DNA from: Nibricoccus sp.
GTDB lineage: Bacteria; Verrucomicrobiota; Verrucomicrobiia; Opitutales; Opitutaceae
Length of the DNA stretch: 64,000 nucleotides
Assembly: GCA_047602425.1 (NCBI GenBank)
Contig: JASGHG010000001.1
Coordinates: 2,176,001 to 2,240,000 of the forward strand
Reading direction: 5' to 3'
The notes beneath the pieces are model-generated. The model did no database searches. It had not been told where the DNA came from and was given only the letters and a program-made list of their open reading frames with translations. Shown here piece by piece: positions 4,025 through 28,764 of the stretch; within the stretch, counting starts at the first letter, position 1, and each line of letters begins with the position of its first letter. The position numbers were made by a program, and so were the translations under genes.

Positions 4025-5830
4025 ATGAGCGATCGGAAATCCAACAGCAACGCCCCGTTCAATCAACCTGGCGCACATCGCCGGGCCTTGCTCACGGCGC
4101 TGCGTCGGCGGGACCTCCGAGAGGCGTGGTGGACCGTTCTCGACGCTTGGGAAATGCGCCGGCCTTTGCGATACGCGGTTTATCTTTCCGTGGCTGCACT
4201 CGCAATTGGCGCTATTCTTTGGTTTGCCGCTTATCCCCGGTGGGCCCAACGCAACGCCATCCGCATGGCGCGCCAGTGGATCGAGGCCGGAAAGCCGGAG
4301 TACGCCGCCGAGACCGTGTTGAAGGCGCTTGTCCGGAATTCTAAACAACCTGAACTCTGGAGCCTCGCTGCCGAACTCGCCCGCCTCAATCGCCAGAAGG
4401 ATCTTGAGGTCGAATACGCACATCGCGCCGCACAGGCCGCGCCAGGAAATTCCCAATACATTCTTGAGTGGGCTTCCGCGGCCCTCCGCGCGGAAATGCA
4501 AGACGTCGCAGAGCAGGCTCTGTCTGAATTGTCTCCCGACGCGTTGGCGCGTTCCCCACTCGCACACCGCATGCTCGGCGAAATGCGCCGGCGCGAATCC
4601 GATTTTGCGGCTGCCCGCGAACATTTCGAACTCGCCCTCAAAATCGATGGGCCCGGTCCGGTAAATGAAATCCCGCTTGGACTATGCTTATTGGCCGATC
4701 GCGATCCTGCTGGCCATGCACGAGGCAGCGATCTGCTCAACCATTGGACTGCTGATCCGCAATGGGGCGCGACCGCCCTTCGTATTCTACTCGACGATGC
4801 GCTCCGCCGCGGTGACCGCGAAGCGATGTTGAGGCACGCTCTCGCGCTCAAAGATCATCCCCAGTGCACATTCGGCGACATGCCGGTCTGCCTGCGAGCG
4901 CTCGCCTTTGCCGATGGCAAAAAGTTCGACGAAACTCTCGTCCAATTACAAACGAAGCATCGCGCGAGTTCCGAAGCGGCGGCGCAATTGATCGGCTGGC
5001 TCAATCAAATTGGCAAAAGCGCGGAAGCTCTCGCGTGGCTGTCATCGCTGCCGGAAAAAGATCTGGCGCGTCCTCCGCTCGCACAGGCCAAAGCCGAGTC
5101 GCTGCGCGCGCACGGCGATTGGACGGAGTTGCAGTCTTGGGTCGCCCTCGGCGCTTGGGGACCGGAGTTGGACTTTATCCGCTGGGCCTATGGGCTGCTC
5201 GCGGCGCGCAAGCTCGGAGATGGAAAACGCGCGGAAGAACTTTGGAACACCCTTTATGGCCACGCTCTTTCCAACAGTGTGCATGCGCACTTCGCCGGCT
5301 CGCTGGTTTATTCCTGGGGATTCGTTAAAGAATCTGAAGCCCTCTGGTGGCGCGCCGCCGGACAGAGTGGCGGCGTGGCCTACGAATCTTTGGGTTCATT
5401 GGCTCGCCATTATCAGGTTCAACGCGACGCCGAGGGCCAATACCGGGTGTTCAACCAGCTGCATTCGCTGCGGCCGCAGGACGACGATGTGACCAACAAC
5501 TTCATCTTTTTCGCCACTCTCACCGGCAAGCGCGAACAACAAGCCGAGCGTCTCGCGCGCGACCTTATGCAACGCCACCCGAACCAACCGACCTACACCG
5601 CGACCTATGCTTACGTTCTCGTGGCTAATGGCCGTGCGGCGGAGGCTTTGCGGCTGGTCGAACCGCTCGCCGCAAAACTTCCCCGTTCGTCCGCGATTCA
5701 GTTTGCCCGCGGTCTGGCTCTGGCCGGCGTCGGGGAGAAGGACAAGGCTCGTCCGATCCTGCGAGGCCTGCCACCGGAATCTTTGACCACGCGTGAAGTC
5801 GAACTGATCGAGTCGACGTTAAGCCGCTAG
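4025..5830 (+). CDS. Membrane-anchored TPR-repeat protein
   Basis: One N-terminal TM helix followed by repeated TPR-like helices (AHRMLGE...AAREHFELAL, TYAYVLVANGRAAEALRL). Confidence 0.75.
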   Translation: MSDRKSNSNAPFNQPGAHRRALLTALRRRDLREAWWTVLDAWEMRRPLRYAVYLSVAALAIGAILWFAAYPRWAQRNAIRMARQWIEAGKPEYAAETVLKALVRNSKQPELWSLAAELARLNRQKDLEVEYAHRAAQAAPGNSQYILEWASAALRAEMQDVAEQALSELSPDALARSPLAHRMLGEMRRRESDFAAAREHFELALKIDGPGPVNEIPLGLCLLADRDPAGHARGSDLLNHWTADPQWGATALRILLDDALRRGDREAMLRHALALKDHPQCTFGDMPVCLRALAFADGKKFDETLVQLQTKHRASSEAAAQLIGWLNQIGKSAEALAWLSSLPEKDLARPPLAQAKAESLRAHGDWTELQSWVALGAWGPELDFIRWAYGLLAARKLGDGKRAEELWNTLYGHALSNSVHAHFAGSLVYSWGFVKESEALWWRAAGQSGGVAYESLGSLARHYQVQRDAEGQYRVFNQLHSLRPQDDDVTNNFIFFATLTGKREQQAERLARDLMQRHPNQPTYTATYAYVLVANGRAAEALRLVEPLAAKLPRSSAIQFARGLALAGVGEKDKARPILRGLPPESLTTREVELIESTLSR

Positions 5831-6481
5831 CGGAAATTTTTTCTTCCGCCTCAACCGCAACCAGCCGTAAAGCAACAAAGTTCCAGCCAGCGGCACCCAT
5901 GCTCCCACCTCGGGCACTACGCCGCTGATCGACGAAACCATCAGACCGCTCGAGCCGGCCACGTTGTGAACCGCAATGCTGATCGTGTTGCTGCCGATGA
6001 CAAAATTTGAGTTCAAAGTCAGCGTGGTCGGCGTCGAATTCAAATTGCTGCCATTCACCACGGCGGTTTGTACGCCGTTCACGTAAATTATCGCGGTGTC
6101 GTCGACGTAGAGCGTCAGCGTGATGGACGCGTTGCTGGTCGCACCCGTTCCCGTGCCGGCGATATCGAAGGTGAGAGCGTAACTGTAGTCGACGCTGGTC
6201 CCGGGAGACCCAAATACATTTGCGCTGATCCATTTCGCCGACGAGGAGGTCGCCCAACTGCCGGGGAGAAAAAGTCCCACAACGTAGGCTTCGCCCGAGG
6301 CGTTTGACGATGTCCAATGGTTGTCGACGCCCCAAAACCATTCCGGCGTGCTTTCCTGTCCCGTGCGGTAGAGTCCCGTGATGCTTGTGGCCGTGCCGGC
6401 GCTTGCCTGCGCGGCCAGCCAAAACGGCGTAAGCGCCGCGAAAAGGAACGCGGCGCAACAGCGAGCTCTCATGGGTTGCAT
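5819..6481 (-). CDS. PEP-CTERM-type surface protein (copy 2)
   Basis: Signal peptide, Ser/Thr/Gly/Asn-rich beta domain, C-terminal VPEVGAW + TM helix + RLRRKKK; ATG 6481 (or 6472) chosen as start. Confidence 0.8.
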   Translation of the reverse strand: MQPMRARCCAAFLFAALTPFWLAAQASAGTATSITGLYRTGQESTPEWFWGVDNHWTSSNASGEAYVVGLFLPGSWATSSSAKWISANVFGSPGTSVDYSYALTFDIAGTGTGATSNASITLTLYVDDTAIIYVNGVQTAVVNGSNLNSTPTTLTLNSNFVIGSNTISIAVHNVAGSSGLMVSSISGVVPEVGAWVPLAGTLLLYGWLRLRRKKKFPLAA

Positions 6482-6494
6482 GTTATTCCAGCCG

Positions 6495-7169
6495 CTAAAC
6501 CGCGGCCGGCAGGTTGTTTTTCCTCGGACGAAAGCGTGCCCAAGCCAGTAAACCAAATGCCATCGCCAACGGAATCCACGCACCGACCTCCGGAACCACG
6601 CCGCTGATCGATGAGACCATGACACCGCTCGGTCCGCTGCCGGAGTTGGAGACGGTAATCGTGATCGTGTTCGTGCCGATGACAAAGCCGTTGCTGAGCG
6701 TGACGTTCTGCGTCCGGGACCATTGGCCAGAGCCAGTCGTGCTCACACCGTTGCCGCCGTTCACGGTGATGATGGCGCTGTCGTCCACCGCGAGCGTCAT
6801 GTAAACATTGACCCCGCTGACCGCGCCCGTGCCGGAACCCGCGATATTAAAAGAGAGCGTATATGTGTAGGTGCCAGAGCCGAGTCCCGAACTCCCGTTG
6901 CTGGCATAGCTGATCCATTTCGCGCTCGTGCCGTTGGCCACCCATCCGTTCGAAGTCACGTTATTGTTCGAAACCACGTAGGCAAAATTCCCATCGCTCA
7001 TCTTCCAATGGTCGTCGCGCGTGCCATTGTCGGCGCCATCAAGACCTGTCGTGTATAATCCCGTGATCGAAGTCGCCGTGCCCGCCTGTGCCTGCAGGGC
7101 CATCGCACAAATAAATATCAAGACGCCGGACATAACGCGTGCGATTTTCGTGAACAGGGCAAATTTCAT
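6495..7169 (-). CDS. PEP-CTERM-type surface protein (copy 1)
   Basis: Signal peptide ending AQA, same domain as copy 2, C-terminal VPEVGAW + TM helix + RFRPRK. Confidence 0.85.
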   Translation of the reverse strand: MKFALFTKIARVMSGVLIFICAMALQAQAGTATSITGLYTTGLDGADNGTRDDHWKMSDGNFAYVVSNNNVTSNGWVANGTSAKWISYASNGSSGLGSGTYTYTLSFNIAGSGTGAVSGVNVYMTLAVDDSAIITVNGGNGVSTTGSGQWSRTQNVTLSNGFVIGTNTITITVSNSGSGPSGVMVSSISGVVPEVGAWIPLAMAFGLLAWARFRPRKNNLPAAV

Positions 7170-8424: not shown

Positions 8425-10350
<1,926 letters not shown>

Positions 10351-10367
10351 GCCGAACCAACGTCTAT

Positions 10368-10710
10368 CTTATCACGATCTGTGACAAGTTCCGCCAAAGC
10401 CCCGGCCGCGCTCGCCGCGAAAAACTCCTCCATGATTCCCGTGGAGCAGATCGATTCGCGTATCCTGCTCGTTCGCGGCCAAAAGGTACTTTTGGATCGG
10501 GACTTGGCTTTGCTGTACGGCGTCGAAACAAAAGCCGTCAACCAAGCGGTGAAACGTAATCCAGAACGCTTCCCCACCGATTTCATGTTCCAGCTCACCG
10601 AGGCAGAATATGGAGCGCTTTTGAAGTCACAGTTTGTGACCTCAAAAGGCGAATCGAACACTAAATCGCTCGAAGGCAACAACATCCTGAGGTCACAAAT
10701 TGTGACCTCA
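10368..10710. repeat. Three (G/A)TCAC-N5-GTGAC palindromes at 10368-10388, 10618-10648 and 10688-10710
   Basis: CTTATCACGATCTGTGACAAG; CTTTTGAAGTCACAGTTTGTGACCTCAAAAG; TGAGGTCACAAATTGTGACCTCA read directly from the sequence. Confidence 0.9.
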
Positions 10711-11037
10711 AAAGGAAGTTCCCGTTCTGGAGGCCGTCGCTACTCCCCGTTTGTTTTCACCGAACAAGGCGTCGCGATGCTTTCGGGTCTGCTGAACAGC
10801 CCGCGCGCCGTTCAGGTCAACATCGAGATCATGCGCGCATTCGTTCGGATGCGTCAAATGCTCACCGAGCACGCCGACCTCGGCCGCAAACTTAAAGCGC
10901 TCGAAAAGAAATACGACGCCCAGTTCAAGGTCGTCTTCGAAGCCATCAACGAACTCATGGAACCCGTCGACGAGGAAGACGCGGCCAAAGAGATCGGCTT
11001 CCACACGCTCCTCAAACCCACACCTTCCAAAAAATAA
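10432..11037 (+). CDS. ORF6N-domain DNA-binding protein
   Basis: IRGQKV-type start ([43 protein letters not shown]), [32 protein letters not shown]-terminal IGF; alternative GTG start at 10381. Confidence 0.9.
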
Positions 11038-11067
11038 CCACGTCCCATCACTCATTCGATTTTCACC

Positions 11068-11883
11068 ATGGTCGCCGAAACCTCCTCCACCCAAAACGTC
11101 TCCGCCCTCACCCTGCGCGTGTGGCGCCAAGCCGGCCCGGACAAACCTGGCAAGTTCGTCAATTACCAGGCCAAGGATCTAAATCCGAACATGTCGCTCC
11201 TCGAGATGCTCGACGTCGTCAACGACGAGCTGACTCTCAAGGGCGAAGAACCCATCGCATTCGCGCACGATTGCCGCGAAGGCATTTGTGGTACCTGTTC
11301 GCTGGTTATTGATGGCAAGCCCCACGGCCCTCACAAAGGCATCGCCAGCTGCCAGACCTATGTCCGCAGCTTCCGCGACGGCGACGTCATCACGATCGAG
11401 CCATACCGGGCCAAGCCTTTCCCGGTCATCAAAGACCTCATCGTCGATCGTTCGGCCTTCGACAAGATCCAGGCTGCCGGCGGCTATGTCAGCATTCGCA
11501 CCGGCGCCGCCTGCGATGCCAATGCTGTTCCCGTTCCGAAGGAAAACGCCGAACTCGCAATGGACGCCGCCGCGTGCATCGGTTGCGGCGCCTGCGTCGC
11601 GGCCTGCAAAAACGCCTCGGCCATGCTGTTCGTCGCCGCGAAAGTTTCTCAGTACAGCCTGCTCCCGCAAGGCCAGCCCGAACGCGACCGCCGCGTTCTC
11701 GCCATGGTCGGCAAGATGGACGAACTCGGTTTCGGCAGCTGCACCAACCAATACGAATGCAGTGCCGCGTGCCCGAAACTGATCAGCCACGACTTCATCG
11801 CCCGGATGAATCGCGACTATCTCGCCGCCACCTTCCGCAGCAGCTTCAAGCCCGCGTCCGCCAACACCGGCGGTGGCGCCTGA
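11068..11883 (+). CDS. sdhB: Succinate dehydrogenase/fumarate reductase iron-sulfur subunit
   Basis: CREGICGTC (2Fe-2S), [11 protein letters not shown] (4Fe-4S), [12 protein letters not shown] (3Fe-4S). Confidence 0.96.
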
Positions 11884-11908
11884 GCCAACAAGAAGTTTTT
11901 CAAAAACC

Positions 11909-11937
11909 AAAGGCCGCCTTTTTCGGGCGGCCTTTTT
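11909..11937 (+). terminator. Rho-independent terminator, probably bidirectional
   Basis: AAAGGCCGCC-TTTTTCG-GGCGGCCTTTTT between convergent genes. Confidence 0.85.
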
Positions 11938-11978
11938 CGTTCACGGTTTCCTGCCGCAACAGCGGAAATTTGCGCCGT

Positions 11979-12446
11979 TTATTTCGCCGCCGCGCGCAAT
12001 GAAGCGAGGTCGAGCTGGCCGTTCGTCACAGATTTCAGACGCGATTTGTCGTCTGAAACCTCCATGCGCATGATGCTTTCCAGCCGGTAACTCGCGGCGG
12101 AGGCCGACGAGTTGCGGATGCGTTGAAGCGCCGCGGGATTTTCCACCTTCAATACGCCTTCGCGCGAAAGCGAAGTGAGCTGCGGGATGCCGACCGGCGT
12201 GGGATTCGTAAATGCACCGATGTATTCGTCGTTCAAATACAACTTTCCCGCCGTCGAGGCGACCGCGATGGCAAAAACATTCTCGTTGTTGTAACGCAAG
12301 GTCACTTTGAATTCGGCTTCCTGCGCGGTGGGCGCGCAATCGGTGAGATCGATCAGCACGTTGCCGATACGGTTCGCGGAACTGCAGGCGGCCAGGAACA
12401 AGCAGAAAGAAACAAGGGACAATGCCTTAAGCCAGGGGGTTTTCAT
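11979..12446 (-). CDS. LEA type 2 / WHy-domain lipoprotein
   Basis: Lipobox LAAC; FKVTLRYNNENVFAIAV...KLYLN...IG pattern of LEA_2. Confidence 0.7.
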   Translation of the reverse strand: MKTPWLKALSLVSFCLFLAACSSANRIGNVLIDLTDCAPTAQEAEFKVTLRYNNENVFAIAVASTAGKLYLNDEYIGAFTNPTPVGIPQLTSLSREGVLKVENPAALQRIRNSSASAASYRLESIMRMEVSDDKSRLKSVTNGQLDLASLRAAAK

Positions 12447-28741: not shown

Positions 28742-28764
28742 TTTGTCATCTAATAGATGACAAA
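28742..28764. repeat. Perfect intergenic palindrome (family copy 1)
   Basis: TTTGTCATCTA-A-TAGATGACAAA, 12 nt after the kinase stop codon. Confidence 0.9.

Follow-up and report, generated by a model that had tools for sequence, protein, structure and literature searches.

A palindrome carried inside ORF6N genes co-varies with the predicted recognition helix of the protein they encode

In Nibricoccus sp., an ORF6N gene between sdhA and sdhB carries the same palindromic motif once at its upstream edge and twice inside its coding sequence. This arrangement raises the question of whether the DNA symmetry or the encoded peptide is maintained, and what the symmetry would serve. The three inverted repeats were reported by a first-pass annotation of the window, that is, the whole stretch of 64,000 nucleotides analysed here, and all were found as placed (Table 1). 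Their centres, at 10378, 10633 and 10699, are spaced by 255 and 66 bp and share one codon register; the internal pair is in frame and codes for LKSQFVTS and LRSQIVTS, as that annotation had stated. It had also read LITICDK over the upstream copy, a peptide that is readable there but in another frame: the frame of the gene itself gives LSRSVTS, in the register of the internal SQFVTS and SQIVTS.

Table 1. Features of the sdhA-sdhB interval, with the evidence for each
Feature	Position	Strand	Basis
sdhA, flavoprotein subunit, left flank of insertion	8425..10350	+	PF00890 E 1e-53, PF02910 E 4e-37
Upstream dyad, decayed, 7 of 10 pairs, in frame with gene	10368..10388	.	Inverted-repeat scan, allele comparison
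ORF6N gene (218 aa) with a putative winged-helix-type N-domain, a variable linker and a long C-terminal helix	10381..11037	+	PF10543, tblastn, PADLOC PDC-S05 E 2e-55, structure model
Predicted recognition-helix codons (residues 50-59)	10528..10557	+	Helix 50-59 in model; mutual-information scan
Internal dyad 1, cognate; arms of 14 bp with a single mismatch; encodes LKSQFVTSK	10618..10648	.	Inverted-repeat scan, helix code
Internal dyad 2, cognate and free of mismatches; encodes LRSQIVTS	10688..10710	.	Inverted-repeat scan, helix code
sdhB, iron-sulfur subunit, right flank of insertion	11068..11883	+	PF13085 E 1.5e-23

The insert between the two sdh genes measures 717 bp and contains the ORF6N gene alone, which is single-copy in the 5.16-Mb genome by tblastn. 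Its product matches the PF10543 profile at E 6e-33 (113 bits against a curated cut-off of 27.8), and its named nearest relatives belong to Verrucomicrobia and Opitutaceae. The GTG at 10381 is the likely start codon on sequence grounds, because the frame is open from the sdhA stop onward and ATG 10432 is replaced by CTG or ACG in same-genus alleles, whereas the GTG in the right arm of the upstream dyad is retained. An RNA-library contig of a relative runs from the end of sdhA through the gene to the start of sdhB, a weak hint of co-transcription of the three. The structure model (pLDDT 66 overall) has residues 50-59 helical and the palindrome-coded linker unstructured (pLDDT below 50). The best fold matches of the N-domain are to Dachshund/Ski, pSK1 Par and Mbp1 (Z 4-6), and weak matches also include Xis, RdfS, BldC and RacA, all of them below Z 7; as matches of a model to winged-helix DNA binders they are weak, though coherent. 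A Foldseek search with the model returned nothing at E 0.001, and a sequence search for a solved-structure relative found none. The homodimer prediction scored 0.02 and is not used as evidence. Elsewhere in the window (5819-7169, minus strand) lie two secreted-type ORFs, paralogous and in tandem, each with a VPEVGAW motif and a basic tail at its end, which we take to be PEP-CTERM-like.

The two internal dyads are far more symmetric than their peptides require, synonymous recoding reaching the symmetry of dyad 1 in 0.09% of draws and that of dyad 2 in 0 of 100,000. The single mismatch of dyad 1 is A10625 opposite C10641, and G at 10625 restores the symmetry in two related contigs. The upstream dyad contains the likely start codon in its right arm, which is a perfect 6-bp cognate half-site; its outer arms belong to a sister-allele type, and it is down two more pairs than its counterpart in the G004 allele. 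We take it for an old duplicate that came to serve as the start; as a site it would be weak at most. Elsewhere, four loci (L286, L028, L016 and L149) have two or three dyads of differing types arrayed ahead of the gene. The first-pass annotation proposed scanning the genome for the motif, with a divided outcome. Taken by itself, the short 5+5 core is no commoner in the window than expected by chance (3 matches at up to one mismatch, chance mean 1.44; a count of 3 is attained in 13 of 100 shuffles). The 6+6 site with spacer 3, by contrast, is exclusive to the ORF6N gene, with exactly two occurrences in the 5.16-Mb genome, both within it. A genome-wide regulon scan with the 6+6 site gave 2 perfect and 3 one-mismatch matches, not above other spacers, and revealed no array of sites. 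Perfect palindromes with AT-rich centres, presumably REP-like, are dispersed over about 30 places in the genome (in the window near 28752 and 59152) and form three families, all unrelated to the ORF6N site; one of the families accounts for the spacer-7 peak of 23 in the genome scan.

Whether the symmetry extends beyond this gene was addressed in 220 loci from the same phylum and from viral contigs. The seed profile matched 204 ORFs; 35 failed the first parsing pass, of which 29 were recovered and 6 omitted. The final set has 168 distinct genes, with 117 representatives below 80% identity. The best linker dyad has 8-10 of 10 pairs in 117/117 representatives, at one codon position. The mean is 9.51 of 10 pairs, against 6.42 for synonymous recoding of the same peptide; every one of the 117 genes exceeds its null mean, and 113 do so with p at most 0.05. 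Single internal dyads are carried by 99 of the 117 genes and two by 16, while 2 have none passing the filter. Both sides of the pairs change together: at distance 4, the 134 sites have A-T 67 times, G-C 40 times and C-G 21 times (the innermost A-T pair, being set by site selection, is excluded as evidence). These paired changes alter the coded peptide, which may read SQxVT, SQxAT, FQxGT, CQxGT or VxNCD, and 10 of the 134 sites lie in the +1 reading frame. Judged from the sequences, the symmetry is maintained at the DNA level. The first-pass annotation had proposed that the DNA symmetry rather than the peptide is selected and that the palindrome is read in alternative frames across the family, and it had suggested looking for compensatory changes; the recoding null and the +1-frame sites bear out the two proposals, and the paired changes are present.

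The symmetry is linked to the protein through the predicted recognition helix, in which co-variation with bases of the site falls on Lys51, Ala52 and Gln55. Among the 99 single-site genes, base 3 of the half-site can be predicted from the residue at the position of Gln55: Gln goes with T in 50/52, Glu with C in 26/26 and Arg or Lys with G in 20/21. This position ranks first among 88 by excess mutual information (1.26 bits), position 52 being second with 0.92. Genes with Lys at position 51 (helix +2) have C as base 6 of both arms in 55/56 cases, those with other residues in 5/43. The usual major-groove pairings are Glu-C, Arg/Lys-G and Gln-A. The code is obeyed in 8/9 of the +1-frame dyads, whose coded peptide differs. 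Within classes of identical outer arms and frame, 107/112 genes are concordant, against a permutation mean of 46.9 and a maximum of 63 in 20,000 permutations. Each of the 16 two-site genes contains a cognate site, and in 11 both are cognate. Held-out genes obey the code in 32/40 cases, the others being 5 with Gln, Leu52 (+3) and A, 2 with Leu and A, and 1 without a site; the Leu-A rule was added after 2 genes had been seen. The exceptions to the code comprise five Gln-Leu(+3) genes with A, one Gln gene with C and one gene without an internal site. A genomic search that starts from the site places 76/120 matches inside ORF6N genes, which span 21 phylum-level groups; Gln is present in 65 of these genes and Glu in 1, and 10 were improperly parsed. 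The corresponding viral search finds Gln in 13/13 ORF6N genes with the exact site and Glu in 3/3 with the C-variant. The outer arms are symmetric as well, and co-vary with the neighbouring linker codons, not with the helix. Because of this symmetry and residue-to-base code, and because both internal copies fit Lys51 and Gln55 of the window's protein, the dyad is probably the double-stranded DNA site of the ORF6N protein itself. The helix-to-base code lends strong, if indirect, support to the part of the first-pass proposal that made the dyad a site for its own protein.

The same site is also found outside the gene. The exact 9+9 site occurs at 44 viral loci, 37 of them distinct: 13 inside ORF6N genes (all with Gln), 2 near one and 22 alone. 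None of these 22 stand-alone records contains PF10543, 20 of them being less than 90% complete. They fall into 11 similarity groups, 19 of the sites are intergenic, and all have one of the eight commonest spacers of the family; as controls, the same arms with spacers 4-8 gave 1 match and permuted arms gave 0. The C-variant occurs at 14 viral loci, 3 inside Glu genes, 1 near one and 10 alone. When the core was left open, 45/100 distinct viral matches listed were symmetric and gene-free within 500 bp, and 36 of the 45 were three family types; with a control core, 17/106 were symmetric among the matches listed, 1 with a family spacer. The TGGCA/TGGGA (G) types were absent from the stand-alone viral sites among the matches listed. 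Many of the viral stand-alone sites have A/T tracts and lie between convergent genes, like intrinsic terminators, with mixed types pairing by G.U wobble. Six viral records (four whole or nearly so, two in part) hold one site copy each and no array of types, and an ORF6N profile search of the six gave no match at E 10. The named phages searched for the site gave short, chance-level matches only. At six viral loci (L443, L447, L457, L460, L538 and L348), terminator-like sites with similar flanks have different or mixed core types. Among cellular matches 17/80 stand alone. Housekeeping genes make up most of their neighbours, RhuM, HicAB, ParE and NADAR being present at four loci, and no clear pattern emerges.

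Since the exact site stands alone in 22/37 viral contexts, in records with no ORF6N match, these copies suggest a self mark like that of the BstA-aba system, copied by phages as decoys. The site would be written into its own gene in the loose linker past the helix-turn-helix, a place that tolerates any peptide. In a dimer, each half-site would be contacted by one recognition helix, whose Gln55 would read base 3 and whose Lys51 would read base 6. The helix codons and the site are about 90 bp apart and would therefore travel and switch together, which may account for the many specificity alleles at one sdhA-sdhB junction. The second internal copy would stem from duplication in frame, and the upstream copy from an earlier duplication, later taken over as the start. 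The site would act as a "self" mark or tether, with the ORF6N protein held or disarmed on DNA that bears it, and phages without the gene would carry single copies as decoys. This purpose is suggested by the match to the PDC-S05 profile, the BstA-aba precedent and the gene-free viral copies. The terminator-like make-up of the viral sites, the wobble pairing of mixed types, the absent G types, the single copy per record and the stand-alone sites in cells weigh against decoys. The poorly resolved tree, the exceptions to the code and the non-cognate upstream copies count against the reading as well. The whole reading, of a binding site that is also an aba-like self mark or tether for a candidate anti-phage factor, with phage decoys, is held tentatively, at slightly less than an even chance.

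The same binding could instead serve negative autoregulation, the protein acting as a transcription roadblock on its own gene and at the start-codon copy and the viral copies being relics reused as terminators, which we consider possible but rather unlikely. All the helix-code evidence fits it, PHROGs calls the family anti-repressor, and the viral sites are terminator-like. The extra copies concentrate at the 5′ end of the gene, about 200-225 bp ahead of the linker; in about a dozen alleles the upstream dyad lies in frame 219 bp before it, and the GTG start fixes the right arm of the dyad. One junction allele without an internal dyad (L281, G335) has a cognate upstream dyad of 9 of 10 pairs. 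Against autoregulation, the 30 bp from the sdhA stop to the start codon seem to leave no space for a promoter of its own, and a search of the plus strand for sigma-70-type promoters from 10000 to 12100 (other promoter types being outside the search) gave no match. A roadblock in the ORF6N gene would stop sdhB too. The upstream copies are often non-cognate, base 3 in 20 alleles being fully cognate in 7, half cognate in 6 and non-cognate in 7, and the exact core and spacer kept in 11 unrelated viral groups would stay unexplained. The short interval, the lack of a genome regulon and the fact that just seven of 20 upstream copies are fully cognate also speak against a classical promoter operator, for which the earlier operator proposal finds no support.

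The first-pass annotation had also considered an insertion or recombination site of a minimal mobile element. The dyad would then be used by an Xis/RDF-like protein or a host recombinase that duplicates and swaps the linker cassette and spreads the gene. The loci fetched at sdhA-sdhB comprise 27 with an intact ORF6N gene, 22 that are short and empty, and 3 broken or cut. The 27 alleles, differing in helix and site, share one junction, and same-genus alleles are about 85% alike outside the cassette (G001 and G003, for instance, have Arg and a single G-type site). The two copies in 16/117 genes and the weak fold matches to Xis, RdfS and BldC point the same way. So do P0007 and P0009, which are near-identical and differ by exactly 22 residues between the repeats, as one-copy and two-copy alleles, a difference that may equally be an assembly collapse. 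However, the dyad is found in 0/22 of the empty junctions, and the insert holds no recombinase gene beside the ORF6N gene. Both arms match the helix, whereas a crossover at the centre would yield hybrid sites, and direct repeats suffice for copy-number change without a dedicated system. None of the sequencing runs contains the strain of the window (best share 0.17), and the contigs of relatives from four runs, a weak test, show no joint between the two internal copies. Recombination as the role of the dyad is thus improbable.

Symmetry might also arise without any protein binding, from an mRNA or single-strand hairpin or from template-switch repair of quasi-palindromes, the link to the helix then reflecting shared descent or a protein-internal fit. 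The two internal copies do fold strongly into a stem, whichever strand is taken (z -6.0 and -6.7), but the folding of the upstream copy does not exceed that of shuffled sequence (z 0.2). The helix leaves the outer-arm symmetry unexplained, and the tree test is non-significant: on a tree built without helix and linker, the two traits change 37 and 32 times, yet the tree is poorly resolved and the 5 independent supported pairs (p 0.06) are too few contrasts for significance. On the mRNA strand, mismatches of the A.C kind exceed those of the G.T kind (32 against 19, p 0.09), which is the opposite of an mRNA-stem preference. Moreover, the code is obeyed in both reading frames, and it persists among sites with fixed outer arms, where paired point changes are needed, so a hairpin or repair origin has little probability. 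A constraint on the peptide alone, with near-symmetric DNA that happens to code SQxVT, is ruled out by the synonymous-recoding null, since the peptide by itself yields 6.4 of 10 pairs where 9.5 are observed, the paired changes alter it, its linker is predicted to be unstructured and the site also occurs outside coding DNA.

For the preferred reading, of a binding site that doubles as a self mark, the closest precedent is BstA, an abortive-infection protein with an aba element (Owen et al. 2021, PMC8585504). In the parts of that paper available, BstA and aba share with the ORF6N gene a KilA-N-like N-terminal DNA-binding domain (putative for ORF6N), a short DNA element that lies in the protein's own locus, over the start, and acts as DNA, and cognate pairs of protein and element (for ORF6N, by covariation); a phage given aba escapes BstA (PMC8585504). 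By analogy the ORF6N dyad may work like BstA-aba, although by its make-up it is not an aba element: aba is 63 bp with terminal direct repeats, whereas the ORF6N element is a dyad of 21-31 bp. In the same sections direct binding by BstA is left open and no residue-to-base code is given, and BstA is prophage-borne, in contrast to the chromosomal ORF6N gene in sdhCAB (PMC8585504). The words "palindrom" and "ORF6N" are absent from the paper (PMC8585504). PADLOC, Pfam, PHROGs and NCBIfam gave no BstA-named match for the ORF6N protein, though these collections may hold no BstA model.

Three PADLOC models of PDC-S05 do match the ORF6N protein (E 2e-55 to 5e-37). One PDC-S05 member lowered the plating of T7 and T5 about 1000-fold; according to the available part of the report, the tested member bears a Virulence_RhuM domain, not ORF6N, and no DNA site is mentioned (10.1101/2024.09.26.614923). 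By this analogy the ORF6N protein is a candidate anti-phage factor. In RhuM genes (PF13310, L301-L330), a coding dyad lies at a fixed place past the helix motif in 17/20 parsed hits, a count made without a null and with 11 of 30 loci unparsed, and the cores vary. As far as sequence can tell, the dyad architecture may be common to PDC-S05.

By PF10543 the protein is also a member of the Bro network of domains (ORF6N, KilA-N, Bro-N, Rha and AntA), and its PHROGs matches are to anti-repressor families. Bro-network domains have been described as domain-swapping (PMC10111431) and as anti-repressor (PMC6591296), and the available portions of these descriptions contain no DNA site or coding palindrome. 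The window's protein has no KilAC/ANT partner domain by Pfam. The openly accessible literature searched on ORF6N and related families likewise yielded no description of a coding palindrome. Other likenesses are more distant. The N-domain matches pSK1 Par weakly (Z 5.0, rmsd 2.1 over 53) and RacA at Z 4.5, neither of them diagnostic; pSK1 Par, RacA, BldC and Xis-type winged-helix proteins have a long C-terminal helix in common with the ORF6N protein, but differ in that the ORF6N genome has no array of sites. The iterons of the lambda origin lie in gene O, so that there too the site is inside the coding sequence of its binder, in the linker region, although these iterons are direct repeats belonging to a replication origin. 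The ORF6N gene has no such initiator or origin context, and to our knowledge the lambda O iterons show no family-wide switching code.

Each gene of this thousands-strong family thus appears to be labelled with its own DNA target, which would amount to a natural table of residue-base pairings for a winged-helix fold and make specificity predictable from sequence. For BstA-like proteins, the question of how self is told from invading DNA would become directly testable, with phage escape predicted for each host allele. Should the viral copies prove to be decoys, they would be a DNA-only form of anti-defence, invisible to protein searches. A wider proposal, which we regard as doubtful, is that ORF6N proteins, and probably RhuM proteins too, are very widespread one-gene anti-phage systems whose antidote is the DNA site within the gene, with helix and site changing in step under a simple residue-to-base code and with phage decoys disguised as terminators. 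If true, it would open to view a readable and predictable arms race between phage and host at the level of single base pairs.
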